This document shows positions 3,434-18,048 of a stretch of DNA of 64,000 nt, piece after piece (the first letter of the stretch is position 1; each line of letters starts with the position of its first letter). This DNA is from a candidate division TA06 bacterium B3_TA06 (GTDB lineage: Bacteria > Hydrothermota > Tepidihabitantia > B3-TA06): positions 1,836 through 65,835 of the forward strand of contig NJBO01000002.1 of NCBI GenBank assembly GCA_005223075.1, in the 5' to 3' direction. Both the position numbers and the translations under genes were made by a program. The notes under the pieces are model-generated. The model saw only the letters and a list, made by a program, of their open reading frames with translations, searched no databases and had not been told where the DNA came from.

Positions 3434-4765
3434 TTATGCGATCAAACCGCGCTCGCGCAGAAGCTTTGCAACCACCGCCTCAAGCTCGGGCAGCACCGCA
3501 TCGTCGAGATCGTAGTAGACCCGGGTTGAAGGCTTGGCGATCTCAATCACCTTCCGCAGATCAATCGGCGTACCGATAACCACCGTATCAGCAGGGACGG
3601 CGTCTATTGATGCCTTCATGTCATGAAGCTGTTCAGGACCGTAACCCAGGGCAGGCAGCAAGGGTGCTGTCTGGTTGTAGCGCTCAATCGTTTCCTTAAT
3701 CCGCCCCTTCGCGTAAGGGATGGGATCAACGATCTCAGCCGCCCCGAACTTCTTGGCGGCAATTGTTCCCGCACCTATCTTCATGCCGCCGTGGGTGAGC
3801 GTGGGGCCGTCCTCTACCACCACAACCCTCTTGCCGCGGATGAGACTCTCGTCCTCAACCTTAACCGGCGAGGCGGACCTGATGATTCTGGCCTTGGGGT
3901 TCAGGCGATTTGCCGCCTCTTCCACTTCCGCAATCTGTTCTGGTGTGGCGGAACCGATCTTGTTTATCAAAATCATATCAGCCATGCGGAAGTTCACCGC
4001 ACCCGGATAGTAGGTCTGCTCGTGACCGGCGCGCAAGGGATCGGCAAGCACGATGGCGAGATCAGGCCGATAGAAGGGGATGTCGTTGTTCCCGCCGTCC
4101 CAGATCACCAGCTGGAACTCCTTCTCGCACTCTGAAAGGATCGCGCCGTAGTCCACCCCAGCAAAAACGGTGCTGCCTGCCCGGATGTGCGGCTCGTACT
4201 CCTCGCGCTCCTCTACGGTGCAGTTGTGGCGGTCCATGTCCTCAATTGTATCAAAGCGCTGCACCGCCTGAGCGGCCAGATCACCGTAAGGCATGGGATG
4301 GCGCACCGCAGCGTAGCGGATCTCGTACTTGACAAGGATTTTGGCGACCGCACGCGAGGTTTGGGACTTGCCCGCACCGGTGCGCACAGCACACACAGAG
4401 ATCACCGGAAGCTTGGATGAGAGCATGGTGCTTTTCGGACCCATAAGCCTGAAGTCTGCACCTGCGGCAAGTACTGTAGATGCTCTATCCATCACATACT
4501 CGTGACTTACGTCGGAATAGGCAAACACAACCTCGTCCACATCATACTTCTTGATTAAATCAACCAACCTCTCCTCCGCCTCTATTCCTATCCCTTCAGG
4601 GTAAAGCGAACCTGCTAAACTCGAAGGATAACGACGGCCCTCGATCTCGGGAATCTGGGTTGCGGTGAACGCCACAACCTCGTAGTTCTCGTTGTTTCTG
4701 TAGCATACATTAAAGTTATGAAAGTCGCGTCCCGCAGCACCCATTATGATAACACGTTTGCGCAT
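3434..4765 (-). CDS. P-loop NTPase family protein (COG2403-like predicted GTPase / cyclic 2,3-diphosphoglycerate-synthetase-like)
   Basis: N-terminal Rossmann-like segment (VIIMGAAGRDF...) followed by a Walker-A-like VRTGAGKSQTS. Length 443 aa. The family name is assigned from memory, not from a search. Confidence 0.55.
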   Translation of the reverse strand: MRKRVIIMGAAGRDFHNFNVCYRNNENYEVVAFTATQIPEIEGRRYPSSLAGSLYPEGIGIEAEERLVDLIKKYDVDEVVFAYSDVSHEYVMDRASTVLAAGADFRLMGPKSTMLSSKLPVISVCAVRTGAGKSQTSRAVAKILVKYEIRYAAVRHPMPYGDLAAQAVQRFDTIEDMDRHNCTVEEREEYEPHIRAGSTVFAGVDYGAILSECEKEFQLVIWDGGNNDIPFYRPDLAIVLADPLRAGHEQTYYPGAVNFRMADMILINKIGSATPEQIAEVEEAANRLNPKARIIRSASPVKVEDESLIRGKRVVVVEDGPTLTHGGMKIGAGTIAAKKFGAAEIVDPIPYAKGRIKETIERYNQTAPLLPALGYGPEQLHDMKASIDAVPADTVVIGTPIDLRKVIEIAKPSTRVYYDLDDAVLPELEAVVAKLLRERGLIA

Positions 4766-4942: not shown

Positions 4943-6328
4943 ATGGTATTATCGAGCCTTATACTGACATTAGTAGCAGGTGCAGGAAGCGGAGTGAGTT
5001 TCCATACTCAACTGCAGTATACACCTGCCCTACTGACCAAGGGGGAGGATTATGATCGAGACCCTTCCATTGAGGCGGTGATCAATCCCTACGACGCATA
5101 CTACTTCTCTCACAGGGTTTCAGCTAAGGTCGGTCTGGAGGCTTTCGGCGGGTGGGAGCTGCGGGCAATCGGATGTATCTCGCAGTCTATCATACCTCAT
5201 GCGTTTCATGTCGCGAGCTTTGACGATGGAACATACCCGCGGATTCCATACACGCTCTGGAGTTCCCGTGAGGTAAGCGTGGGCGGCGAGCTGGGACACG
5301 CCGTGCGATTCCGTAACGGAAAGGGGGATATTTACCTCGGCCTGGAGAGGGTTTGGACTGAGGTGCACGGCGAAGGGGTATTCTACCTGGATACAATAGT
5401 GGATACCTTCCCGATGTTTACCCACGGCAGCGGCATTCAAGGCCATATAGGCGTAAAGATCCCTCTGGTGACATTTGGTTGCTTTGCTCTTGGGATGAAT
5501 GCCCTGTTAATGGGAGGCAACATCCCTCAGATACCGGACAGCATCCCGGAAGGCTCGGTGTGGACAGGTGCTCACGGCCTTCCCAGGTGGGGATTCGGTG
5601 TGGGCTTAAGCCTTGGTTATGATTCCCGCAAGAATTTGGATTACCTGCCCGATTTAAGATTGAGACCTCATCTCAAGGACTCTTCTCGCCTGGTCCTGAA
5701 ACCGGCAAAGAGATGCTTTCTGCCTCCATGGATCATTCAGGGTGCTGCTTCCTGGGGCTGCGGGTTGGTGGGCGGCTCTCTGGCCAGCCTGGCTTCCCTG
5801 GCCTGGGGAGGAAACGGCATGGGGCTTGGGCTTAATATCTTCTCCTTGTGGACGGGCGACTATCCAGGCCAAAGGATCTCTGTTGCCGCCTGGAGCTACC
5901 TGGGGGTTCCTTGCGGGGCCATGCTGGGAACGGCCCTTGCCAGCAGAAGGGTTAAGCCGGGCGGCGACTGGCGGTGCGTTGCATTAGGAGCTCTAGCAGG
6001 TGACGTTCTCAGCTTTTCCATCGCCCAGGCCTATCTTCTTATCGCCGGCCCCCCTTGGCGCTACAGCCCTGAGGGAGCCCCTCCTCCCACAGGAAGAGGT
6101 AGTTCGACTTTCTACGGGGTGGTCTTGCCTTTGTGTTCTACCCTTCCGGCGATAGGCGCGGTTGTGGGTTATAACCTGAGTGTTCCCAAGGTCGAATCGC
6201 TGGAAGAAGACATGGGTTACCGACCCTCCTGGACCGAGCATTCAAGGGAGAGTTTTGTAAGTGAGTGGAATTCTTCACCTAGCAGCGAACCAACAATGAG
6301 GCTTACTTTACTGAGAGTGAGCTTCTAA
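4943..6328 (+). CDS. hypothetical Gly/Trp-rich putative outer-membrane protein
   Basis: GAGGTG ribosome-binding site 4 nt before the ATG. Hydrophobic N-terminus, many amphipathic beta-like segments, and a C-terminal ...LLRVSF ending in Phe (OMP-like). I cannot assign a family. The antisense ORFs overlapping it look spurious. Confidence 0.5.
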   Translation: MVLSSLILTLVAGAGSGVSFHTQLQYTPALLTKGEDYDRDPSIEAVINPYDAYYFSHRVSAKVGLEAFGGWELRAIGCISQSIIPHAFHVASFDDGTYPRIPYTLWSSREVSVGGELGHAVRFRNGKGDIYLGLERVWTEVHGEGVFYLDTIVDTFPMFTHGSGIQGHIGVKIPLVTFGCFALGMNALLMGGNIPQIPDSIPEGSVWTGAHGLPRWGFGVGLSLGYDSRKNLDYLPDLRLRPHLKDSSRLVLKPAKRCFLPPWIIQGAASWGCGLVGGSLASLASLAWGGNGMGLGLNIFSLWTGDYPGQRISVAAWSYLGVPCGAMLGTALASRRVKPGGDWRCVALGALAGDVLSFSIAQAYLLIAGPPWRYSPEGAPPPTGRGSSTFYGVVLPLCSTLPAIGAVVGYNLSVPKVESLEEDMGYRPSWTEHSRESFVSEWNSSPSSEPTMRLTLLRVSF

Positions 6329-6381: not shown

Positions 6382-6409
6382 TTGACAAGCTGTCAAAAAT
6401 GTGTAGATT
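6382..6409 (+). promoter_or_regulatory. sigma70-like promoter TTGACA-N16-TAGATT upstream of the TolB-like gene
   Basis: Match to the -35/-10 consensus with 16-nt spacing. It lies about 200 nt upstream of the start, so the assignment is tentative. Confidence 0.35.
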
Positions 6410-6618
6410 GTCATAAAGGGACATGACATGAATAGAAAGGTGTATATAGGAAGAGGTCCTCACACTCCCCGTTGTGATCTTTTAGTAGGATATACGTATA
6501 GGTGTATCGTGTTGGTGGGCAGTCCTTTGATAAAGAGTTTAACCCTAACCTGGAGGTGAACGGAACCTAAAACTGCAACTAAAAACCAATGTATAAACAA
6601 GCATGGAGGAGAAACAAA

Positions 6619-7803
6619 ATGTTTAGGAATAAACACCTCACAATCCTGAAGGCGCTTTGCGCCTTCCTCGTGCTCACTTTTTTCGTACCCGCGACACTTT
6701 ATGCCGCCGAAGGCGAGACCTGGATCGTCTTCGAGTGCAACCGACCCAACCCAGATGCGGAAGGCCGCACCTACTGGGATATCTGGAAGCTAGATCCGGA
6801 TGGAGATGGTTTACAATCAGACGATGGTCTCTTTGGTTTTGCATTAACTAATGACCCTAGCAACGAGTGGGATCCCACCTACTCGGTTGAGAATCAGACA
6901 GTGGTCTTCGTTTCTGATAGGAACGGCTGGCCCCATCTTTACAAGGTCAGCATAGACGGTGGATACTGGGAGGGATTTCTATTCGGGCAGTACTGCGCCG
7001 TTGACCCATGTTACAGCTTTGACGGCACCAGGATAGCCTACGCCTCCAACCAGAACGGTAACTGGGATATATACACAATGGATACGGACGGATACAATAA
7101 AACGCAGATTACCACAGACGCGGCGGATGACCGCAGCCCGTGTTTTTCCACTAATGGAAACAAGATATACTTCATCAGCAACCGGGATGCAGGGGCTATA
7201 GGCGACTGGGAGATATACGTGGTGAACAGCAGCGGGGGCACCGCAACCAAGGCGATAGTGAATGCTCAGGGCCAGCCGTTGCTTCTGGATTACACCGAAC
7301 ACGATCCCTGCTGCAGCCCTAATGATCCTGACATCATCGTCTTTGCCACTAACAAAGCCACGACAACTTACACTGAACCGGTGAACCGCATCAACTTCGA
7401 GTTGTTTAAGTATTCAATTTCCGGCAAAACTTTGATCCGCCTCACGGAAAGTTGGAATGATCCGGCTGGAGTATCAAAACAACTTTGGAACAGCTCTATG
7501 CCGTGCTTTTCGCCTGACGGCCAGCGCATCGCCTGGTCGGCTGATAACTGGACGAGACAAGGGTGGCAAGGTAATCTTCCTGAAAACCGTCCTTATAACA
7601 ACAGTTTCTGGAAACCTGATTTTGACCAAGGTTCTATTCACCAGATCTGGACATGCGAACTCGATCATATAAATAATGACCATTACTACTTTCCACCTTC
7701 ATTTTGGGGGTGGGAAAACGGACCTGTCGGCGTTGGATATGGTGATCATAAAGGTCATCAGCACCACAAGCACTACAACCCTTCTTGGGATAACCAACCA
7801 TAG
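6619..7803 (+). CDS. TolB-like PD40/WD40-like beta-propeller periplasmic protein with Trp/His-rich C-terminal tail
   Basis: GGAGGA ribosome-binding site and signal peptide (LTILKALCAFLVLTFFVPATLYA). Repeated TolB-type blades (SPDG.RIA..S.R.G, WDIY). The C-terminus is ...HQHHKHYNPSWDNQP. Confidence 0.8.
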   Translation: MFRNKHLTILKALCAFLVLTFFVPATLYAAEGETWIVFECNRPNPDAEGRTYWDIWKLDPDGDGLQSDDGLFGFALTNDPSNEWDPTYSVENQTVVFVSDRNGWPHLYKVSIDGGYWEGFLFGQYCAVDPCYSFDGTRIAYASNQNGNWDIYTMDTDGYNKTQITTDAADDRSPCFSTNGNKIYFISNRDAGAIGDWEIYVVNSSGGTATKAIVNAQGQPLLLDYTEHDPCCSPNDPDIIVFATNKATTTYTEPVNRINFELFKYSISGKTLIRLTESWNDPAGVSKQLWNSSMPCFSPDGQRIAWSADNWTRQGWQGNLPENRPYNNSFWKPDFDQGSIHQIWTCELDHINNDHYYFPPSFWGWENGPVGVGYGDHKGHQHHKHYNPSWDNQP

Positions 7804-7811
7804 GAGAAGAG

Positions 7812-9101
7812 ATGGTCAAACGTTTATTCTCATATCTTGCTCTGCTTGCAGTTTCATTAACTCCCTCAATTAGTTATGCTTCTTGGGAAATTCTTGACTT
7901 ACCTACCGACCGGGGTTTCGGCGCTATCTGGGCAATAGACGAGCAAACCATCTTTGTTTCGGGACATCAAGGACTCTGGAAGGCATTCGACGGCGCAACT
8001 TGGTCAATAGATAGCGGTTACCAGTCAAACATGATCTATTTTGTTGATGATACCTTGGGGTTCCTTAGTGGTAAGACCCTTACAACTGATGGCGGCAGAA
8101 CATGGCAGAAAGGTGATACAGTTAATGGTCATGGAATCCAACAAATCTTTTTCCCACCGGGGCAAAGTTCTTTGGGGTACGGTGTCCCTTACTTAGGGAA
8201 TATCCGGAAAACTGAAGATGGCGGCTGGCATTGGGAAGTCTTACCTACTTTTCCCGACATTTTTCCCACCAGCGATGAAGAAGTTCATACGTCACACATT
8301 TGTTTTCCAAGTGATCCCGATACCGGCTATTTAACCGCCGAGATATGGCAGATCATTTCTCTTGATCCATTTGAAGCAGAAACGTACCACAGCTACTTCA
8401 AAACCACGGACGGCGGGCAGAGCTGGGTTTTGAGCGGGGAAGGGCTTTGGAACGACGAATTCAAACCTTATCTCGTTGACTTTCCACAGAACCCAAGCAC
8501 AGGCTATATGGCTGGCTATGGTAAAGTATTCAAGACCACCGACGGCGGTGAAACCTGGGATACGATTTTCATAACCTCTGAAAGTTACCCTAACATCTAC
8601 GACATCTGCTTTCCTGAAACTGACCAGGTAGGCTATGTTCTGAACGACACGATGGTTCACAAAACCACTGATGGAGGTAAGGCCTGGCGAACGTTCGGGC
8701 TGGGCAAGGACACCGTTTTCCTGCGTTGTCATTTTCTCAACAACTTGGTAGGCTTCATCTCAGGCACCGGCACCACCGCCTACAATCTCCTTTACACCCC
8801 CGGCTTCGTCCTCAAGACCACCGATGGGCTTTTAGGGATAGCGGAAGAGGATTGGGTTGAGGTTGAACCTTCGGACATCAAGGTTATTTCCTCAATCGGT
8901 CACTCGATCGTCCTGTGTTACTCCAACTGTCCCCAGGGCTTCCACGCTTCCATCTACGACCCCTGTGGCCGCAAGGTTGACGAGTTGCACTCAAGTCTGA
9001 CTGAGGGCACCCTCACCTGGGGGGAAGGTGCGCCTTCCGGGGTTTACTTCATCCAGGCCAGTAGTGGCAATCCTGCTGTTCGAGTAGTAATCGTGCGATA
9101 G
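7812..9101 (+). CDS. BNR/Asp-box (Ycf48-like) beta-propeller protein with T9SS CTD
   Basis: Repeated K/TTDGG.(T/S)W motifs. Signal peptide present. The C-terminus ...VISSIGHSIVLCYSNCPQGFHASIYDPCGRKVDELHSS...GVYFIQ...VVIVR is a T9SS-type CTD. Confidence 0.8.
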   Translation: MVKRLFSYLALLAVSLTPSISYASWEILDLPTDRGFGAIWAIDEQTIFVSGHQGLWKAFDGATWSIDSGYQSNMIYFVDDTLGFLSGKTLTTDGGRTWQKGDTVNGHGIQQIFFPPGQSSLGYGVPYLGNIRKTEDGGWHWEVLPTFPDIFPTSDEEVHTSHICFPSDPDTGYLTAEIWQIISLDPFEAETYHSYFKTTDGGQSWVLSGEGLWNDEFKPYLVDFPQNPSTGYMAGYGKVFKTTDGGETWDTIFITSESYPNIYDICFPETDQVGYVLNDTMVHKTTDGGKAWRTFGLGKDTVFLRCHFLNNLVGFISGTGTTAYNLLYTPGFVLKTTDGLLGIAEEDWVEVEPSDIKVISSIGHSIVLCYSNCPQGFHASIYDPCGRKVDELHSSLTEGTLTWGEGAPSGVYFIQASSGNPAVRVVIVR

Positions 9102-9110
9102 GAGGAGGAT

Positions 9111-9437
9111 ATGCTTTGGAACAGTTCGATGCCGTGCTTTTCGCCTGACGGCCAGCGCATAGCATGGTCGGCTGATAACTGGACAAGACAAGGTTGGCAA
9201 TATGAGAAAAATCCCGATGGTTCCTATCCCAAGAGTTACTGGAAACCTGATGGGGGGCAAGGTTCTGTTCATCAAATCTGGACTCGAAGGCTGGACCAGC
9301 CTGATCACCACTATTGGTTCCCGCCTTCTTACTGGGGATGGAACGACGACGAACAGGAACCATGGCCTTGGGGGCCACCAGGGCCGGGCCATCAGCACCA
9401 CAAACATTACAACCCATCGTGGGATGAGCAGCCATAG
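9111..9437 (+). CDS. small Trp/His-rich protein, a duplicated copy of the C-terminal ~108 aa of the TolB-like protein (gene fragment or stand-alone domain)
   Basis: About 80% amino-acid identity to residues ~300-404 of 6619..7803 (LWNSSMPCFSPDGQRIAWSADNWTRQGWQ...HQHHKHYNPSWD.QP). It has its own GGAGGAGG ribosome-binding site and ATG. Confidence 0.6.
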   Translation: MLWNSSMPCFSPDGQRIAWSADNWTRQGWQYEKNPDGSYPKSYWKPDGGQGSVHQIWTRRLDQPDHHYWFPPSYWGWNDDEQEPWPWGPPGPGHQHHKHYNPSWDEQP

Positions 9438-9443
9438 GAGGAG

Positions 9444-10754
9444 ATGATGAAACACTTGTACTTAATCGCTTTGATGCTTACAGGTATAGTGAGTCCTTCG
9501 CTCGTGCAAGCCTCCTGGGAAATCCTAGATTTGCCAACGGATCGTGGTTTTACCGCAATCTGGGCCATTAATGAACAAACAATTTTTGTTATAGGCCATC
9601 AAGGACTATGGACTACTTTTGATGGAAAGGAGTGGGTTTTAGACAGCACCTATCAACCAAGCTATATCTACTTTGCAGATGATACGCTGGGTTTTCTTTG
9701 GGGCAGCATTCTAACCATAGATGGAGGACACACATGGCGAAAGGGCGATACAGTAAACGGCAATGTGGTTCCTGTTCATTTTGCTAGAGGTCAGAGCCTT
9801 GTCGGTTACGGCTTGGGTTACGATTACGCATGTAAAACCACGGACGGTGGTTGGCATTGGGATCAACTTCCCCCTCTACCAGACGTATATCCAGGTTTCG
9901 ATGAAATCATTTCGCCTGACGATATTTGTTTTCCAAAAGACCCTGACACAGGCTACCTGACTGTGACATGCATTAAGCAGTTATCTGATGGTGAGATAGA
10001 GTATCACAATAGCTACTTTAAGACCACGGACGGCGGCCAGACCTGGGTATTGAACGAGGAAGGACTTTGGAATGACGATTTCAACCCTCGCTATATCGAT
10101 TTTCCTCAAAACGCTAGTGTAGGCTACATGGCAGGCGGAGGCGGTAAGGTTTACAAGACCACCGACGGCGGAGCTACATGGGATACGGTGCTCAAGGATC
10201 GCCCTTATATCGTCAGCATGTGCTTCCCGGAAAGCGACCAGGTTGGCTATGTATTTGGTGATTCAGTAGCCCACAAGACTACCGATGGAGGCAAGACCTG
10301 GAAAGAAGCTGTGATTACACACGATTCTACTTTCTACAAATGCCACTTTATCAACGATAGTGTAGGGTTCGTTACGGGTCATAAGAATATGACTCTCTGC
10401 ATGCCCTACGACCCCGGCTTCGTTCTGAAGACCACTGACGGGCTGCTGGGGATAAGTGAGGATGACTGGGTAGATGTGGTGCCTGAGCTTGTGGAGCTAA
10501 GTGCCCCAGCCCTCTTCAGCCGCGAGCTTGCGTGTCGCTACCAGGCAAGGGAGTCGGGGCGTATACGATTGACACTTTTTGACGCCGCAGGCCGTGAGGT
10601 GCAATCTCTCGGCTGGTGCGAGGTAGGATGTGGAGAGGGTTCCTTAAGCTTTAACGGAGCCTTGCTCCCGACAGGAGTATATTTTATCCGGGTGGAGTTT
10701 AGTTCCGCTCAGGGAAGCCAAAATCAAAAACTGCGGGCCGTGAAGGTCCAATGA
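9444..10754 (+). CDS. BNR/Asp-box (Ycf48-like) beta-propeller protein, tandem paralog of 7812..9101, with a divergent T9SS CTD
   Basis: The N-terminal ~350 aa align with 7812..9101 (SWEILDLPTDRGF.AIWAI.EQTIFV.GHQGLW...). The C-terminus ...LTLFDAAGREV...GVYFIRVEF...KLRAVKVQ is CTD-like. Confidence 0.8.
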   Translation: MMKHLYLIALMLTGIVSPSLVQASWEILDLPTDRGFTAIWAINEQTIFVIGHQGLWTTFDGKEWVLDSTYQPSYIYFADDTLGFLWGSILTIDGGHTWRKGDTVNGNVVPVHFARGQSLVGYGLGYDYACKTTDGGWHWDQLPPLPDVYPGFDEIISPDDICFPKDPDTGYLTVTCIKQLSDGEIEYHNSYFKTTDGGQTWVLNEEGLWNDDFNPRYIDFPQNASVGYMAGGGGKVYKTTDGGATWDTVLKDRPYIVSMCFPESDQVGYVFGDSVAHKTTDGGKTWKEAVITHDSTFYKCHFINDSVGFVTGHKNMTLCMPYDPGFVLKTTDGLLGISEDDWVDVVPELVELSAPALFSRELACRYQARESGRIRLTLFDAAGREVQSLGWCEVGCGEGSLSFNGALLPTGVYFIRVEFSSAQGSQNQKLRAVKVQ

Positions 10755-10769
10755 TTTAAGGAGGGAAAG

Positions 10770-13700
10770 ATGATACACAAAACCTGTAACTGGAAAACTG
10801 CATGGTTAATAGTGTCCATGTTTCTGCTTACTTTTACTAGCAAGGTCGCGGGTGAAGAGTTCGATAACCGTTTTCTATTAGGGGTCTATAGTGACAAAAC
10901 CTATCACTCGTTAGATGAAACAAGACACGACGAACTACACTTGAATCTTCTTTTTGGGACGACCACAGGAGTTGGTACATACAGTAGTTACTGTAGTGAA
11001 GATCCTAGACCACAAAATGCTGTATTCTTTTATGCGGGTGAATCGGATCGTCTGGAACCGGCAGTAACCACACCAACAACTCTATCTGAATGGAAGAATG
11101 TAACTGTTGATGCTGCTTTGAGTAGATATCCGGGCAGTGGGACATTAATACACAGAATGTCTTGGCACTTGGGTGAGGAGCATCCTGAATTCTACGATCC
11201 CTTATTTTATGATGGCATGAATTTCCTAATCTCTGAGAAAATACCTGCTAATGAACTGGCCACTTTCTGTGCTACCTTTACTGTTCGGCCTGACATCTTT
11301 TTAGGTGTTGAGGGGCTGGACCTGGGTTGGTATTATTTCGAGCCATTCCTCACCATTTACAAAACAACGGACACTTACTATCAAGATTCCCTTCAGAAGT
11401 ATTGTGTAGATGTGTACGACTTGGTTGCAAAAAAAGTAAAGAATTACCGACAATGGGGATTCTGCCCGAATCTGCAATTAGGAGTGATTCTGCAGGGTTT
11501 CTATGATAGCGATGAAAACGGTGACCCCAGTGACCCTGATGGACATCGCCTACCCACTCCTGAAGAAATGAGCTTTGAAGGATGGCTCACTTTATCTCGG
11601 GGAGCTAAAGCCATGCTGTATTATCTTTATCATTACTCGGATGAAGGTACTCCTAGTTCTCAAATAGGTTTGATAAATTCAGATCGTTCACCGAATAGCA
11701 CTTTTGACCCAGCTGCTGATTTCTACGCGCAGATTAAAGCCATAGACGATAATCTAAAGGGCGCTCCCTACAACTACGCCAACGGACTCTACGAAGTTGA
11801 GCTTGCTAAGTACAAATCTATTCGTGGAGACATGTTGACCCCTGAGTTTTTCGTACGCGAAATCATTGTTGATCCGCCACCGGGTAAGACAAAAGATCAC
11901 GTTTACACTGAACTTAGCTTGCACTACTCCCCATATGGGCACAATTTCTTCCTTTTGCTTAATCGTTCCCTCCACCTTAGCGAACCGGTTGAATACGACA
12001 TAACACTGTTGTGGCAAGGGGAAGGAAGTCCCATCGTCATAGATCTTACTTCGGGAGAAACAATTACCCCTGGGGTTCCTGTGCAAGGTGATGAGTTTAT
12101 GATTCACGTGACCCTTGATCCAGGAGAGGCCGGTTTCTACATAATAACCAATAGCAGTGGAGGTGGGACCGAAAGGGAGCTCTACCTTTGTGGCGAATGG
12201 AGAAATCGCGGGGTTGCTCCCTGGGAGCAAATGAATCCGCAAGATCCCTCTGATCACGGGTACGCGCATTGCAGATGGGAGTGGCTTAAAGGCAAACCTT
12301 TAAACCTGACTGGAATGAGCACATGGAAACACCCCTGTGGCGTGGAAGATTGGGAGCCTGGCCCCTACGATTTTATTCGGTCCATCAATCTGAATTGGGG
12401 CTATTTCTACGATAGGATGGACGCGGACTGCATGAACTATGTGAAGGTAGGCGAACATTCCTACGGAGACGATCTCAGTGATATCGAAGATGGCTTGGTC
12501 GGGACTAAATCGAACGAGATCACGATACAAGAACCCGAAGGTCCCGAGCCTGGATGTCCAGAAGTTTACACCTTCGTTGAGCAAGATACTGCAACCTGCA
12601 CTTATTCGTTCATGGAAAACAACACAATATTGCCTTTTTCCGAAACGGCTGTGACTCTAGAAGAGATTCGTTTAGACCTCTTGAAGATTGATGTGCTTAA
12701 TATCCATACAGGACATTACTACCTCAACATCCGAGAAAACGACGACGAAGAAACCTATCTTTATGGTGCGACACTGTGGGTGGTGGACCATCCCGAGGGT
12801 ACGATAGTCGCTACCTCGTCAGATAGCAACATCTACGTCTACTCTGACGTAGCCAAGCCGCTCACGTGCGTGGATCAGAGTAGTATCGATCGCTATGAGG
12901 AGGTCGTCTATCGAGACGATCAGGCTTTCATCGGATCGGACAACTCTTATCTCACGGTTAGCTTCCCCAATACTAGCTGGATCAATAAAGGAATACTTAT
13001 ACTAACAGGTCTGCCTGACGGGATTGCGGAAATCGATTGGTCCAAGAACTACTACTGCCTGGTCCAAAAATCAAATGGTCAGGGCGGCTGGATTCCTTCA
13101 GGTGAGGCGTTTGCCCGCAAGAACCCGTCACTGTGGTTGGTAGATGTATCTGACGCTTCCGATACCACCTTCCGCATCGATTGCTTTGGTGATTCCTGCT
13201 GTATCAACTATGTAGCCCTGGTTAAACTGGAAGACAATGGCTGGACGCAAACCGAAGCCCCGATTGATTCCGCAATACTTTGGATTGTTGATCCGCCCGG
13301 TACAGCTCCTGTTGGAAGTAATGTTGAGGATTTAATTTCTGATCCCCAAACTGCTGGGATTATTTCACCATGCGGACAGTTGGCACTTTCCTTTACCGAG
13401 GTTCCGCCTGACACTACCTGTCAGCGCGATTTCGTCCTCCAAACATCCGGCTATTACATCCCAGGCATCGGTGGTGGAGATGGCGGCGAACAGAGTACCA
13501 CACCATCTTTGTGTTTCGATCTGGAGGTCCAGACGCTTCACGGTTTAAGGAAGGTCATGCTGATAAACTACGAGGTTCCGGTAGCCACCGACGTAAAGAT
13601 TGCTATCGTGGACGTTGCGGGGCGCGTGGTAGCAGAGCCTTTGAAAGAAGAGGTTACACCTGGCAGGCATCAACTGGAGTGGAACTGGTGCGACGACGCT

Positions 13701-13787
13701 GGGCGAAAGGTTGCTTCAGGGGTATACTTCGTCAAGATGGTTGCAGGTGAGTTCACGGAGGTGAACAAGGTTGTTTTGACAAAGTAA
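10770..13787 (+). CDS. large (1005 aa) secreted hypothetical protein with T9SS CTD
   Basis: Signal peptide. No motif I recognise in the body. The C-terminus ...KIAIVDVAGRVVAEP...GRHQLEWNW.DDAGRKVASGVYFVKMVAG...KVVLTK is CTD-like. AAGGAGG ribosome-binding site. Confidence 0.75.
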   Translation: MIHKTCNWKTAWLIVSMFLLTFTSKVAGEEFDNRFLLGVYSDKTYHSLDETRHDELHLNLLFGTTTGVGTYSSYCSEDPRPQNAVFFYAGESDRLEPAVTTPTTLSEWKNVTVDAALSRYPGSGTLIHRMSWHLGEEHPEFYDPLFYDGMNFLISEKIPANELATFCATFTVRPDIFLGVEGLDLGWYYFEPFLTIYKTTDTYYQDSLQKYCVDVYDLVAKKVKNYRQWGFCPNLQLGVILQGFYDSDENGDPSDPDGHRLPTPEEMSFEGWLTLSRGAKAMLYYLYHYSDEGTPSSQIGLINSDRSPNSTFDPAADFYAQIKAIDDNLKGAPYNYANGLYEVELAKYKSIRGDMLTPEFFVREIIVDPPPGKTKDHVYTELSLHYSPYGHNFFLLLNRSLHLSEPVEYDITLLWQGEGSPIVIDLTSGETITPGVPVQGDEFMIHVTLDPGEAGFYIITNSSGGGTERELYLCGEWRNRGVAPWEQMNPQDPSDHGYAHCRWEWLKGKPLNLTGMSTWKHPCGVEDWEPGPYDFIRSINLNWGYFYDRMDADCMNYVKVGEHSYGDDLSDIEDGLVGTKSNEITIQEPEGPEPGCPEVYTFVEQDTATCTYSFMENNTILPFSETAVTLEEIRLDLLKIDVLNIHTGHYYLNIRENDDEETYLYGATLWVVDHPEGTIVATSSDSNIYVYSDVAKPLTCVDQSSIDRYEEVVYRDDQAFIGSDNSYLTVSFPNTSWINKGILILTGLPDGIAEIDWSKNYYCLVQKSNGQGGWIPSGEAFARKNPSLWLVDVSDASDTTFRIDCFGDSCCINYVALVKLEDNGWTQTEAPIDSAILWIVDPPGTAPVGSNVEDLISDPQTAGIISPCGQLALSFTEVPPDTTCQRDFVLQTSGYYIPGIGGGDGGEQSTTPSLCFDLEVQTLHGLRKVMLINYEVPVATDVKIAIVDVAGRVVAEPLKEEVTPGRHQLEWNWCDDAGRKVASGVYFVKMVAGEFTEVNKVVLTK

Positions 13788-13797
13788 AACTGCTCTA

Positions 13798-13825
13798 TTG
13801 ACTTGGAGTATTTAAAAGATAGACT
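13798..13825 (+). promoter_or_regulatory. sigma70-like promoter TTGACT-N16-TAGACT for 13880..15499
   Basis: Consensus spacing, about 55 nt upstream of the start codon. Confidence 0.4.
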
Positions 13826-13879
13826 TGCGGGATGAGAGATAGCCTTTCTTTCCGTATTTAGTTAAGTAAAGAGGACATA

Positions 13880-15499
13880 ATGGTGAATTTTGTTTTTTGG
13901 CTGAGTGCTATTTGTTTCGCCGCACAGCCTATTGTTTCTTGGCAGAAGGTGATTGATAATGGTGATGAAGATAGGTTCCATGGCTTGGACCTTTACAATG
14001 GGGACGTATATGCCGGTGGTGAAAGATACTTTGGTGAGAGCTTTGAGTACGATCTGTGCTTCTTTGTATTCGATAGCGAGGGTAGTGAAAAGCAGAGAAC
14101 CTTCTATTGGGAACGCAATGGGCGAGATGAGTGGGGGAACGATGTTGCCGTGTTATTTTCGGGTAATGTCGTGGTTGTGGGAACTTATGAGACAACCGGA
14201 CAACCCGGTTGGTATACGGTATGGTTCTCGCCTACAGGTGAATTTCTTCACTACGATTCAACTTATGCGGAAGCGAACTATTCATACAACGCAACGTGCA
14301 TTGCAGTATCGTTGGACGATACTTGTTACGTAAGTGGCTGGAGTAGTAAGGACTTAAAAAATGTACGAATGGTTAAATACAGTCCCGAAGGAACCAGGAT
14401 ATGGCGAGAATACTTCCATGGACCAGATATAGGCGACGCTGTGAGTATCGCGCTTGACTCACGAGGATCGGTTTTCGCGTTGTGTAAATCTTTATGTTTG
14501 TGGGGCGGCTGGACAAAAAAAGGGGATTCCTTAGATTTCGTTAATAAATACAGCACCAACGCGGCAGAAGGAGCGGCTATACGGATTAACTCAGCGGATC
14601 ACGTATTTATAGCCGGAGACGTGGAGGGTTCAGACAGGGACTTCATGCTTCTTAAGTATCGAACCGATGGAGAGCAGCTATGGTATACCCACAAGGCTTA
14701 CGATCTTGGCGGAGAGGAAGAATGCCGGGACATGGCATTAGACCCCATATCCGACTGCTATCTTGCAGGTTGGCAGCTAAGAGGCGAGGATGAGGATATA
14801 GCCCTGGTCAAGACCGACTCGGCAGGCAAGATGCTGTGGTCATGGGTGGATACTGTCGAGGGTAAGCAGGAGATCGAGGCCATAGAGGTTGACGAAGAAG
14901 GCTACATCTACCTTGCAGGTTCGCATCACAACGGCGATAACTGGGACATGCTGGTTATGAAACTCCGCCAGCCCTTAACCATCTCCGGCAGAGTCACAGA
15001 CTCGGCAGGCAAGCCCATGGAGGACATACCTGTCGCCCTCACCGGTGACACCACGGTTGAGGTCTTAACCGACACCGGGGGTTATTATACCATAGAGGTC
15101 TACAACGGCGGTGAATATACGGTATCTCCCAACCTCCCTGGCTGGACGTTTGAGCCCTCCTCCCATACTTACTCGCCGCTTGCGCACAGAGAATTCGATC
15201 AGGACTTTGCCGACGGCAAATGGACAGGGGTAGGTGAGCAGTCCATAGAGCGATCGCCTTCCTGGAAACTTATATCTTCCTGCGGAAAGGAGGTGGTTCT
15301 TAAGTATTCCAACTATCCGGAAGACTTCCGTGCTGGCATCTACGATGCTTCAGGCCGCAAGGTGGACGAAATTCACGCCTCCGCTGGCGCGTCGTCCGGT
15401 ACTATCACGTGGGGTGAACATTACGGGCCAGGGGTGTATTTCATCTACGGCCAGTCTAAGCGTTCCTCAATCATCCAGAAGGTGATTCTGATCCGATAG
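13880..15499 (+). CDS. secreted beta-propeller-like repeat protein with carboxypeptidase-regulatory-like domain and T9SS CTD
   Basis: Signal peptide. Repeats resemble those of the first ORF. The TISGRVTDSAGKPMEDIPVAL...GGYYTIEVYNGGEYTVSP segment is typical of the CarboxypepD_reg fold. The CTD is ...LISSCGKEVVLKYSNYPEDFRAGIYDASGRKVDEI...GVYFIYG...KVILIR. Confidence 0.75.
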   Translation: MVNFVFWLSAICFAAQPIVSWQKVIDNGDEDRFHGLDLYNGDVYAGGERYFGESFEYDLCFFVFDSEGSEKQRTFYWERNGRDEWGNDVAVLFSGNVVVVGTYETTGQPGWYTVWFSPTGEFLHYDSTYAEANYSYNATCIAVSLDDTCYVSGWSSKDLKNVRMVKYSPEGTRIWREYFHGPDIGDAVSIALDSRGSVFALCKSLCLWGGWTKKGDSLDFVNKYSTNAAEGAAIRINSADHVFIAGDVEGSDRDFMLLKYRTDGEQLWYTHKAYDLGGEEECRDMALDPISDCYLAGWQLRGEDEDIALVKTDSAGKMLWSWVDTVEGKQEIEAIEVDEEGYIYLAGSHHNGDNWDMLVMKLRQPLTISGRVTDSAGKPMEDIPVALTGDTTVEVLTDTGGYYTIEVYNGGEYTVSPNLPGWTFEPSSHTYSPLAHREFDQDFADGKWTGVGEQSIERSPSWKLISSCGKEVVLKYSNYPEDFRAGIYDASGRKVDEIHASAGASSGTITWGEHYGPGVYFIYGQSKRSSIIQKVILIR

Positions 15500-15658
15500 A
15501 CAAGGGCAAGGGGTTTAAACCCCTTGTCAACCCTATGCGCGTCCCAGGGGTATGTTATGGGTTGACATACCCCTAAAATCAGTTAAAATTAGTAAGGATT
15601 TTACTTGCCGAGTTATGGTTTTGGATAAGTAGAGAAAAATGTCCCTCAAGGAGGGAGA

Positions 15659-16354
15659 ATGCAGAGATCGAGAGTTATCTTTGCCGTACTTATGCTGCTG
15701 GCGTTGCCGGGATTAGGAGTAAGTACAGCAGCCGCCGACAGCCTTGACATAACCCCTTACGAGATAATCTCGCCGGAGAGAGTCCAGCAAGATCCTTTCA
15801 GGCCTCGGGCGTGGTTCGCTGAACGCGGAGGCGTAGAAGTCCAGGAGCCGTCTTTGATTTGCCTTATTGTAGATCTGAGCTCTCAAGACTCGGTATACAT
15901 AGACTCCATCCCTCTGTGGAGAGTGAAACCTTATGACACCATAAAAGCAACGTTTGACGAGACTGATCCCGCGCCCAACATCTACGAGATCACCTTCTGG
16001 GCGGAGAATGATTGGCCCACAAATATCAGCTACCCGCCGCTTGTGGACACCTTCTACTACAAAGTAGGTATAACGGAAACCCCTGTCCCCGGCGAGTTCA
16101 ATCTGGACCCAGTCTCCCCCGATCCGACTACACGCTCTGTTACTGTGAGTTTCTCTCTAGGGCACCCTACCGAGATCACCCTTTCCGTCTATGACTTAAC
16201 CGGTAAGATTGTAACCACGCTTGCGTCCGGAACATGGAACCAAGGCAGACACTCTGTGCGTTGGTATCCTTCGAACGCGCCGCCTGGCGTTTACTTTCTG
16301 CGACTTAGGACACCTGGGTTCTCAGCATCCCGCAAGGTGGTACTGCTGAACTAG
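15659..16354 (+). CDS. small secreted protein with T9SS CTD
   Basis: Signal peptide MQRSRVIFAVLMLLALPGLGVSTAAA. The CTD is ...ITLSVYDLTGKIVTTLASG.W..GRHSVRW.....PGVYFLRL.....RKVVLLN. AAGGAGGG ribosome-binding site. Confidence 0.75.
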   Translation: MQRSRVIFAVLMLLALPGLGVSTAAADSLDITPYEIISPERVQQDPFRPRAWFAERGGVEVQEPSLICLIVDLSSQDSVYIDSIPLWRVKPYDTIKATFDETDPAPNIYEITFWAENDWPTNISYPPLVDTFYYKVGITETPVPGEFNLDPVSPDPTTRSVTVSFSLGHPTEITLSVYDLTGKIVTTLASGTWNQGRHSVRWYPSNAPPGVYFLRLRTPGFSASRKVVLLN

Positions 16355-16406
16355 ATTTTTTACAACTCAGAATAAGTGTCTGCGCAGGGTTCAGGGTATA
16401 AAAAAC

Positions 16407-16434
16407 TTGACGTGCACCTATAGATAATTATAAT
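16407..16434 (+). promoter_or_regulatory. sigma70-like promoter TTGACG-N16-TATAAT for the C10 peptidase gene
   Basis: Near-consensus -35 and a perfect -10 with 16 nt spacing. An AGGAG ribosome-binding site and the ATG at 16462 follow. Confidence 0.5.
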
Positions 16435-16461
16435 CGGGCAATCTGGTAAAAGGAGATCACA

Positions 16462-18048
16462 ATGTTGCAGATAAATCTCTGGGCAAGGAGGACGCTTGCC
16501 GCTACGGTTTCCCTTTTTGTAATCTTGGCAGGCTGGCTTCCGGCTGCAACGGTTACCCCCCAGGAGGCTACAAAAGCGGCAATGACCCACATCCAATCCA
16601 TGACCAACGTATGGAGCCAACTCCCATACCTTGAGAATCAAACCATCACCGTAGACAAACTCAAAGAGCTGTGTGAAACTGAATCAAACCAGCTTCTGGG
16701 TTACGTCGCCGAGCTAACACCAAGAGGATTCGTGGTACTTTCTGGAAATACCCAGCTCGCCCCGATAATTGCCTATTCGTATCGCTGCAACTTCCCATGG
16801 GAAGGGAATGCGGATAATATCCTGCGTTGTATGCTAAAAACCGACCTCGCTTTAAGAGAAAAAGCCGTCTCTATAACGGACGCAAACATCTTAAGTGCGA
16901 ACAACTCTTCATGGGAGAACTACCTTGCGGGCGAAGTATTGCTTGAGCTAACCGGGCAGTGGCCCTCTCCAGGTTCCACCCACACGGGTGGATGGGTTGA
17001 AACCACCTGGCGTCAAACTTACCCTTACAATGCCTACTGCCCCAAAGATCCGGGAACAGGCAAGCGATGCGTGGTGGGGTGCGTTGCCACGGCGATGTCC
17101 CAGATCGTAGACTATCATTCCGATAGAAGAAACTACATGAGCGACATTCAACTCTACCGCTATGACAGATATGTCTCAATGATGACAAGTCCATATATAC
17201 GCATTGACCAGGATTCCTCTACATACGACTTCCCCTCGTTCAACGCCCTGAATGGATACCTGGAAGATTTGAGGAATATTTACCTTGCAGATTCCACCCC
17301 GGGTTATTACGATGTTGCCGCGCTTGCCTTCACCTGCGGCATCTTTGTCAAGATGCACTACTCAAGCAGTGGGTCGGGAACCAACGTAGATCGCGTTTCA
17401 TTCGCCTTGATGTTCAAATTTGGATACCCATCGGCGATGAATGTGGACAAAAACACAGCGTGGTTCTACGACACCTTAAGCCAGAACATGAAAGATGCCC
17501 TGCCTGCAGAGCTTGGTATACACTATCCGGACGGTTCATACGGCCATGCGATCGTCTGCGACGGACTGCGTGAGATTGAAGGCGAGGACGACCAGTACCA
17601 TCTGAATTTTGGATGGGGACCCGACAGCCCTGGTCCGATCACAACCGCATGGTACGTCCTACCTCAAGGGATGCCTCTCGGATACAGGGTGATATCAGGC
17701 GGAGTACTATCCATCAGACCCCCTGAAGGCTCCTACGTAGCGGAGCGCGCAGAACCACATCCTTGCCGGTTCTTTATTGAACAACTCTCCCCTACCCTGC
17801 AGATCGCTCCGGCTGCACTCACCTTATCTTACGGACTCCCCTGCCCTGCAAGGGTGCGTTTGAAGATATACGACATCAACGGCCGGATGATCAAGACCCT
17901 CCTGGACGAAGATATGCCTGCCGGTTACCATCAAACAGAATGGGACACGCGAGACAGAGAGGGCCGCGAGGTCGCGTCCGGGATCTATTTCTGCGTGCTC
18001 GAAACAAAGGAAGGAATTTACAAGACAAAAGCCGTCGTAATACGATAA
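16462..18048 (+). CDS. C10-family (streptopain/SpeB-like) cysteine peptidase with pro-region and T9SS CTD
   Basis: Catalytic Cys context GCVATAMSQIVDYH, as in SpeB/fragipain. The His is in YGHAIVCDGL. Signal peptide. The CTD is ...VRLKIYDINGRMIKTLLDED...EVASGIYFCVLETK...KAVVIR. Confidence 0.85.
   Translation: MLQINLWARRTLAATVSLFVILAGWLPAATVTPQEATKAAMTHIQSMTNVWSQLPYLENQTITVDKLKELCETESNQLLGYVAELTPRGFVVLSGNTQLAPIIAYSYRCNFPWEGNADNILRCMLKTDLALREKAVSITDANILSANNSSWENYLAGEVLLELTGQWPSPGSTHTGGWVETTWRQTYPYNAYCPKDPGTGKRCVVGCVATAMSQIVDYHSDRRNYMSDIQLYRYDRYVSMMTSPYIRIDQDSSTYDFPSFNALNGYLEDLRNIYLADSTPGYYDVAALAFTCGIFVKMHYSSSGSGTNVDRVSFALMFKFGYPSAMNVDKNTAWFYDTLSQNMKDALPAELGIHYPDGSYGHAIVCDGLREIEGEDDQYHLNFGWGPDSPGPITTAWYVLPQGMPLGYRVISGGVLSIRPPEGSYVAERAEPHPCRFFIEQLSPTLQIAPAALTLSYGLPCPARVRLKIYDINGRMIKTLLDEDMPAGYHQTEWDTRDREGREVASGIYFCVLETKEGIYKTKAVVIR

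Follow-up and report, generated by a model that had tools for sequence, protein, structure and literature searches.

A conserved one-blade remnant of a TolB-like propeller gene between tandemly duplicated BNR genes in a candidate division TA06 bacterium

In an operon of secreted propeller proteins from the candidate division TA06 bacterium B3_TA06, an uncultured sediment organism, a unit of ∼1.63 kb that runs from codon 299 of a TolB-like gene through the following BNR gene was duplicated in tandem. The duplication left a 108-codon open reading frame (ORF), here called F108, between the two BNR genes (BNR-1 and BNR-2), and the patterns of substitution in related genomes give good support to the conclusion that F108 is a selected coding sequence. 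The locus lies in a 64,000-nucleotide stretch (here referred to as “the window”) of a 265.5-kb contig, NJBO01000002.1. Tandem duplications routinely leave headless fragments, which annotation pipelines discard as pseudogenes, and the duplication itself is ordinary. What is unusual is the conservation of a headless, leaderless one-blade remnant, which is more conserved than the adjacent full-length gene at equal synonymous divergence.

Comparing window positions 7300 to 9110 with positions 9050 to 10800 by blastn returned one long collinear match (7483-8687 against 9114-10301, with 66.5% identity over 1,235 columns and an E value of 4e-83) and one short match (8793-8863 against 10407-10477, 76%). 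A dot plot of 7400-9105 against 9105-10760 had been proposed in an earlier reading of the DNA from its letters alone (the sequence-only reading). At the protein level, F108 is 64% identical to residues 299 to 404, the last 106 amino acids, of the TolB-like protein (E value of 8e-43), and BNR-1 is 52% identical to BNR-2 (E value of 8e-151). The sequence-only reading had claimed that the duplicated unit combined the BNR gene with part of the TolB-like gene, that the small ORF has its own ribosome-binding site and start codon, and that the paralogous BNR genes end in different C-terminal domains (CTDs). All of this was borne out: a Shine-Dalgarno (SD) sequence and an ATG follow the BNR-1 stop, and the BNR-1 CTD is 33% identical to that of BNR-2. 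Given that identity between the copies is only about 66% and that independent assemblies (loci L004 and L001) show this arrangement too, chance and assembly artifact can be excluded.

The relatives available for comparison are WOR-3/TA06 metagenome-assembled genomes or metagenome contigs that represent few independent genomes, all uncultured. Three lineages (the window, L004, and L001) have kept the F108 ORF with its start codon and SD sequence unbroken at a synonymous divergence of about 1 per site, whereas in a neutral simulation with 0.5 substitutions per site, an intact ORF and start codon survived with a probability of about 0.004 per lineage. The accumulation of frameshifts or stops, which the sequence-only reading had named as the mark of a pure pseudogene, is not seen; in the related genomes that have the ORF (L004 and L001), it is intact and under purifying selection. 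The stand-alone (free) copies of the window and L004 share 81 to 83% amino acid identity, with a proportion of nonsynonymous differences (pN) of 0.109, a proportion of synonymous differences (pS) of 0.58 to 0.61, and a pN/pS ratio of 0.19 (bootstrap confidence interval, 0.11 to 0.29); these are p-distance values, near saturation at synonymous sites. Between the same two genomes, the nonsynonymous distance (dN) is 0.109 for the free copy, 0.195 for BNR-2, 0.219 for the body of the TolB-like gene, 0.221 for BNR-1, 0.296 for the tail still fused to the TolB-like protein, and 0.45 for the large protein encoded after BNR-2. BNR-2 is a fair internal control, as its pS is 0.57 against 0.61 in the free copy, yet its dN is about twice as high.

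The same picture emerges against the parent and along single branches. Over its first 29 codons, F108 differs from its own parent by six synonymous and no nonsynonymous changes (neutral P value of about 5e-5), and lineage-specific changes on the free-copy branches amount to 16.3 synonymous and 6.7 nonsynonymous changes in L004 and to 10 and 8, respectively, in L001, set against a neutral nonsynonymous-to-synonymous ratio of about 3.3:1. The additional blades of the longer L004 copy are constrained too (pN of 0.05 to 0.09 at a pS of 0.46 to 0.61). In the Trp-rich middle part, free copies have a pN of 0.10 to 0.13 versus 0.37 to 0.39 in the fused tails of this genome pair (bootstrap P < 0.001), a contrast on which we do not lean, given that the fused segments may be older or exchanged. 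F108 thus has neither the broken frame nor the omega of about 1 expected of a pseudogene, and judged from these distances, purifying selection on it is at least as strong as that on its neighbors.

Other sources of the conservation were considered and rejected. Structured RNA was set aside because no Rfam family matched at gathering thresholds within the window, which likewise contains no tRNA. An antisense ORF of 154 amino acids (8991..9455, minus strand) was rejected, as it lies in a codon-aligned antisense frame that is naturally stop-poor, and the frame relation differs in L001; this ORF spans the whole of F108 and looks like a by-product of codon usage. A read-through fusion of BNR-1 and F108 was also rejected, since the two are in frame in the window and L004 and not in L001 or L006, and a buried CTD would be useless as a sorting signal.

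A collection of 15 billion public proteins includes the flanking genes but lacks the exact 108-amino-acid sequence. F108 lies between CEE36_01560 and CEE36_01570, where the number _01565 falls, and the public record probably leaves it unannotated or treats it as a pseudogene. On the evidence above, this ORF deserves annotation as a protein-coding gene. A signal peptide is present in the parent and in both BNR proteins and is found neither in F108 nor in the free copies of L004 and L001.

As for what F108 encodes, the sequence-only reading had described the Trp/His-rich C terminus of the TolB-like protein as a domain of its own. An AlphaFold2 model and the repeat pattern speak otherwise: the “tail” is no separate module, because it is made up of blade 6 and the closing strand of a six-bladed propeller and so is a structural part of it. 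The model of the TolB-like protein (74 aligned sequences) is a six-bladed propeller with a predicted local distance difference test (pLDDT) score of 78.6 and a predicted template modeling score of 0.80, and its top Foldseek matches in the PDB are TolB structures (1c5k, with an E value of 7e-20, 2w8b, and 4r40; E values of about 1e-19). Blade 6 comprises residues 300 to 357, with strands at 300-307, 313-320, and 351-357, and carries long, Trp-rich, low-confidence insertions at 321-350 and 358-393, after which comes a lone final strand of fair confidence (residues 394 to 402, KHYNPSWDN). The mature N terminus opens with the later strands of blade 1 (TWIVFECNR and DIWKL), and when the termini are read circularly, ...NPSWDNQP and ...ETWIVFECNR together form one split PD40 repeat, comparable to DPCYSFDGTRIAYASN. 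From the model and the repeat pattern, we infer that the terminal motif (HYNPSWD) would be strand A of blade 1, providing the Velcro closure of the ring, and that F108 would encode blade 6 with its Trp-rich loops plus this ring-closing strand.

Family searches place the parent among PD40 propellers and at some distance from TolB proper. PD40 (PF07676) matches the parent with 68 bits against a gathering cutoff of 20.9, while F108 alone, 64% identical to the last repeat of the parent, scores just under the cutoff with 18.2 bits. The parent resembles TolB in its PD40 repeats, its predicted six-bladed propeller, and its Sec-type signal peptide. It differs in that it lacks the TolB N-terminal domain, lies outside a tol-pal context (its neighbors are BNR propellers and proteins with CTDs of the type IX secretion system [T9SS], with no tolA, tolQ, tolR, or pal), and falls below the equivalog cutoff of TIGR02800 over the full length (146.7 versus 343.15 bits, with the best stretch at profile positions 274 to 407 of 418). 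The long Trp-rich insertions of blade 6 and the His-rich run ahead of the closing strand further set the parent apart from TolB and other PD40 propellers. In an exhaustive profile search of 1.84 billion representatives, the whole blade and tail occurred in only two 50%-identity clusters, all other matches being to the generic PD40 motif, and a word-index search returned two relatives.

The history of the locus can be read from its relatives. In the single-copy loci (L014, L016, and L023), the TolB-like gene is followed by one BNR gene and then by the gene for the large protein, an order that, by comparison of the loci, is the ancestral state. L004 has the TolB-like gene, BNR-1, a free ORF of 238 codons, and BNR-2. 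Its free copy comprises blades 4 to 6 and the closing strand, has no signal peptide, is labeled as a PD40 domain protein by NCBI, and is a mosaic in which a blade-6-like motif is joined to blade 4 at the start. In L001, a free ORF of 105 codons lies between two BNR genes, and an alternative ATG overlaps the upstream TGA (ATGA). In L006 and L007, the two BNR genes are separated by 76 nucleotides that hold an in-frame 18-codon ORF, MQIHQHHKHYNPSWDEQP, with its own SD sequence and ATG (11643..11699 in L006), a remnant reduced to the His-rich run and the motif of the ring-closing strand; over the HQHHKHYNPSWDEQP codons that the L006 remnant shares with the window copy, all five differences are synonymous. 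The length variants begin exactly at blade boundaries, as would be expected if recombination occurs between PD40 motifs.

The junction GGAGGAT-ATG-CTY-TGG-AAC is clearly common to the window and L001 (where it reads GGAGGAGGATATGCTCTGG). L004 and L006 have an SD sequence and an ATG at the same position in sequences that are less alike, L006 being looser still, and we read the shared junctions as pointing to one founding event. The SD sequence and ATG ahead of F108 resemble those of the large-protein gene that follows BNR in all relatives, a likeness that would follow if the duplicated unit had its right end just past that ATG; both probably came from the gene following BNR. The region after 15499, behind a gene with a BNR-1-like CTD, was rejected as the donor of the junction, since a terminator hairpin is found there and not an SD-ATG junction. 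The types of tail are independent of context, type B being free in the window and L004 and fused in L006, and type A being fused in the window and free in L001. Elsewhere, behind an unrelated PD40 gene, L002 (955..1419) and L003 (689..1153) have an independent, recent copy of blade 6, tail, and BNR that, starting at “PTPCREMWNSS”, shares 98.5% identity with the L009 locus. The ORF of this copy (154 amino acids) has a new hydrophobic N terminus, MKLLIGLIASILGFLGW, and its left boundary is at most 6 codons from the old duplication boundary.

In the explanation that we favor, and that we judge somewhat probable as a whole, F108 originated by the duplication, is a selected 108-codon ORF, takes part in translational coupling, and has a protein role of its own. 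It would be translated by coupling within the operon, and its frame would bring ribosomes to the start of BNR-2, as the end of the TolB-like gene would for the ancestral BNR gene; it would also yield a leaderless partial-propeller polypeptide with its own function. The substitution pattern makes it likely that F108 is a functional protein, whereas on the arrangement of the genes, the chance that coupling to BNR-2 forms part of its role seems to us evenly balanced. All three junctions of the array consist of a stop, a GGAGG-type SD sequence, and an ATG, with spacers of 8, 9, and 6 nucleotides. The F108 ATG follows directly on TAG-GAGGAGGAT, with homology to the parent from the very next codon (CTT TGG AAC). 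Every tail-ending ORF found has its stop no more than 9 nucleotides ahead of a BNR start or overlaps that start (L016), which upholds the pairing of tail and BNR gene noted in the sequence-only reading.

Coupling might be all that F108 provides. As a mere leader, its open frame would be needed for the BNR-2 start and against downstream polarity, and the peptide would be inert. The spacing is tight enough for this, F108 starting 9 nucleotides past the BNR-1 stop and ending 6 nucleotides ahead of the BNR-2 ATG; the ancestral BNR start always lies no more than 9 nucleotides past the TolB-like stop or overlaps it; and the ATGA overlap in L001 and the L006 remnant, which retains an SD sequence, an ATG, the frame, and a stop adjoining the BNR start despite the loss of about 90 codons, point the same way. 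Selection for the frame only, however, would leave missense changes neutral and omega near 1, which is at odds with the pN/pS ratio of 0.19 (0.11 to 0.29), with a dN half that of BNR-2, and with conserved residues that are the structural residues of the parent. Coupling alone cannot explain the conservation of amino acids, so the polypeptide itself must matter, and we consider a leader with an inert product unlikely.

A second alternative takes up the suggestion of the sequence-only reading that preservation of the pair reflects a functional link between the tail and the BNR protein. The Trp/His-rich tail would then be a module that binds metal, carbohydrate, or the BNR propeller, and it would act as a partner of the downstream BNR protein outside the cytoplasm. 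The co-occurrence is real, in that a tail-ending ORF is always ahead of a BNR gene and that tail type and BNR N-terminal type travel together, fused or free. However, adjacency alone accounts for this linkage of types, and every tail-plus-BNR locus is either a syntenic form of one and the same locus or its recent copy, so that the co-occurrence cannot count as independent support for a functional link. The recent 98.5% copy is suggestive, as it carried blade 6, tail, and BNR along and gained a hydrophobic N terminus (P0002), and the His run HQHHKH is nearly invariant; even so, the tail is part of a propeller and not a separate domain. For the free copy, an extracellular partnership finds no support: a signal peptide for export is missing from the free copies (window, L004, and L001), and the closest homologues of BNR-2 (63 to 79% identity) come after ffh and are preceded by a promoter-like TTGACA/TATTAT pair and not by a tail gene. 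No remnant of a tail was found in any frame upstream of these ffh-linked BNR paralogues. This partnership therefore appears quite unlikely.

The mosaic nature of the locus raises a further possibility, that F108 is a spare-part cassette kept because it trades sequence with the expressed TolB-like gene, through gene conversion or unequal crossing-over, while its own product goes unused. The first 87 nucleotides of F108 are about 93% identical to the parent and the remainder is saturated, tail types do not follow context, and both the L004 free copy and the BNR paralogues are mosaics, all of which a cassette would accommodate. Past the first 29 codons, though, free copy and fused tail differ strongly within one genome (pN of 0.36 and pS of 0.74), which indicates no recent exchange; free copies are more conserved than fused tails (dN of 0.109 versus 0.296), whereas a donor not under selection should be the less conserved of the two; and each genome has a single cassette. 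We regard a cassette as rather improbable. That F108 is a dead relic of the duplication is very improbable: the loss of 298 N-terminal codons and the signal peptide, the absence of the protein from the 15 billion sequences, its reduction to 18 codons in L006 and absence in single-copy relatives, and the lack of a confident fold alone would fit a pseudogene, but not the intact ORF, start, and SD sequence in three lineages against a neutral expectation of about 0.004 for each, nor the pN/pS ratio of 0.19 and the exclusively synonymous changes (6/6) in the first 29 codons.

Several points nevertheless weigh against a coupled, functional F108 protein. Modeled alone, F108 has no confident AlphaFold2 fold (pLDDT of 51.8, and about 31 in the terminal segment), and engineered single WD40 blades were unfolded monomers (PMC6805158). 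For the parent, the putative Velcro contact is read from the secondary structure and confidence values of the model. A leaderless piece of an exported propeller would have no obvious working partner in the cytoplasm. L006 keeps only 18 codons and single-copy relatives have no fragment, so F108 is not essential. The free copy of the window is equally close to the fused tail of L006 and to the free copy of L004, and F108 may have spent part of its history fused, with selection acting on it in that form. Finally, the start codon may not have come from the gene following BNR, as all SD sequences resemble one another and the BNR-1 CTD has been exchanged since the duplication.

Known systems offer partial parallels. 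F108 has the same origin as other 5′-truncated copies from tandem duplications, in which the duplication boundary falls within a gene and a copy without its head comes to lie between two full copies of the neighboring gene. Such copies are usually pseudogenes, whereas F108 acquired or inherited an SD sequence and an in-frame ATG and is under purifying selection across lineages, and its kin differ further in having length variants of one blade, three blades, or the closing strand only. Arrest leader peptides (SecM, MifM, and VemP) are brought to mind only by HQHHKHYNPSWD(E/N)QP, conserved at the C terminus and adjoining the BNR start, and by the 18-codon remnant of L006; the monitoring substrates SecM, MifM, and VemP have a signal peptide or membrane anchor, and the free copies have neither.

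The engineered sub-propeller fragments WRAP and PkwA (PDB 6r5x-6r60) are likewise made of whole blades, as are the free copies, with one blade in the window and three in L004, and a PDB sequence search with F108 matched WD40 WRAP constructs only, via an SPDG-x-IA motif. In vitro, WD40 fragments of three blades assembled into dimers or trimers (Afanasieva et al. 2019, PMC6805158), a precedent limited to pieces with at least two blades. In contrast, the single-blade constructs were unfolded, blade 6 of F108 is outside any symmetric, recently amplified propeller, and the extra closing strand of F108 has no counterpart in the constructs. The free copies could be natural sub-propeller proteins that fold only by self-association (6 × 1 or 2 × 3 blades) or by strand exchange, although we think this doubtful. 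We hold out equally little expectation that the window and L001 copies (one blade plus closing strand) and the L004 copy (three blades plus closing strand) function as such in the cytoplasm. If they did, they would be living examples of the intermediates proposed for the evolution of propellers by blade amplification. More generally, if the F108 product is real, it would be a new small protein gene that arose from a duplication junction and a natural test case for the function of sub-propeller fragments.

The BNR proteins that flank F108 belong to the Ycf48/BNR group at the level of domains only. Both match PSII_BNR (PF14870; 39.2 bits for BNR-2 and 27.6 bits for BNR-1, with a cutoff of 27), and both bear five Asp-box motifs (S/T-x-D-x-G-x-x-W). 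They fall far under the cutoff of the Ycf48 equivalog NF010237 (39.5 and 41.8 bits versus 326), the host is nonphotosynthetic, and there are two copies with different CTD types. Their distant relatives are annotated as “YCF48-related” or as T9SS type A sorting domain proteins of Bacteroidota. Upstream of one distant BNR homologue, at about 4700..6000 of L026, a masked run of N is flanked by repeat copies (translated ...THTSNQTSPDYS*SS...).

In tests for sorting domains, neither BNR-1 nor BNR-2 matched Por_Secre_tail at an E value of ≤0.01 (TIGR04183/PF18962), and BNR-2 residues 361 to 430 matched the CTD end of a T9SS-dependent protein model weakly (E value of 2e-4). Two neighbors pass a T9SS CTD cutoff, namely 10770..13787 (26.7 versus 23 bits) and 15659..16354 (29.4 versus 27), while the CTD of the SBBP-repeat protein 13880..15499 scores 21.2 versus 23 bits. 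The BNR-1 CTD is 49% identical to the CTD of this last protein (15287..15499), closer than it is to the BNR-2 CTD, which argues that the BNR-1 CTD was swapped after the duplication; single-copy relatives have a CTD of the BNR-2 type. CTDs appear to be exchanged between secreted proteins of the region. The BNR paralogues are also mosaics of each other and of an ffh-linked paralogue (L017 6001..7320). At alignment columns 300 to 350, BNR-2 of the window is 100% identical in amino acids to the ffh-linked paralogue of another genome, and the first BNR of L006 (10322..11632) shifts along its length from BNR-2-like (98%) to BNR-1-like (88%).

Table 1. Features of the propeller gene array and its surroundings in the window
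Feature	Position	Strand	Evidence or remark
Promoter-like site TTGACA-16-TAGATT	6382..6409	+	Consensus scan; possible operon promoter, weak, as shuffled sequence yields at least as many sites of this kind as the region
TolB-like PD40 propeller gene, 404 amino acids, Sec-type signal peptide, CEE36_01555 (100% identity)	6589..7803	+	Pfam PD40, E value of 5.6e-19; 100% identical to P0152
Parent copy of the duplicated gene piece (blade 6, Trp-rich loops, C-terminal strand)	7483..7803	+	blastn, protein match, AlphaFold2
BNR-1, Ycf48/BNR-type propeller, 429 amino acids, signal peptide, CEE36_01560 (100% identity)	7812..9101	+	Pfam, five Asp-box motifs
BNR-1 C-terminal sorting-type domain (“type 1”)	8877..9101	+	CTD comparisons
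Duplication junction: stop TAG, GAGGAGGAT (Shine-Dalgarno), ATG	9099..9113	+	Parent homology (codon 299) from 9114
F108, 108-codon 5′-truncated TolB-like copy, no signal peptide	9111..9437	+	Parent match, selection tests
SYWKPDGGQGSVHQIWTR			Peptide unique to the 9111..9437 product
HQHHKHYNPSWDEQP, His-rich run and strand-A-like motif	9390..9434	+	Only part left in the L006 18-codon remnant
BNR-2, second BNR propeller copy, 436 amino acids by ORF (435 annotated, CEE36_01570, 100% identity), ancestral-type CTD	9444..10754	+	
Large secreted protein, 1,005 amino acids, T9SS-type CTD, no other Pfam domain	10770..13787	+	After the BNR gene in all relatives

An intergenic promoter and terminator scan of the array found nothing above shuffled expectation. 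Upstream, the ORFs at 4943..6328 (461 amino acids) and 3434..4765 on the minus strand (443 amino acids) have no Pfam match at the thresholds used, and the former has no NCBIfam match either. Downstream of the array, positions 10770..18048 hold a run of secreted proteins with T9SS-type CTDs. Its members include the 1,005-amino-acid protein, an SBBP/delta-60 repeat propeller protein (13880..15499), and a CTD protein of 231 amino acids, and at 16462..18048 there is a C10 (streptopain-like) peptidase with a Spi inhibitor-like prodomain and a FlgD-Ig-type C terminus.

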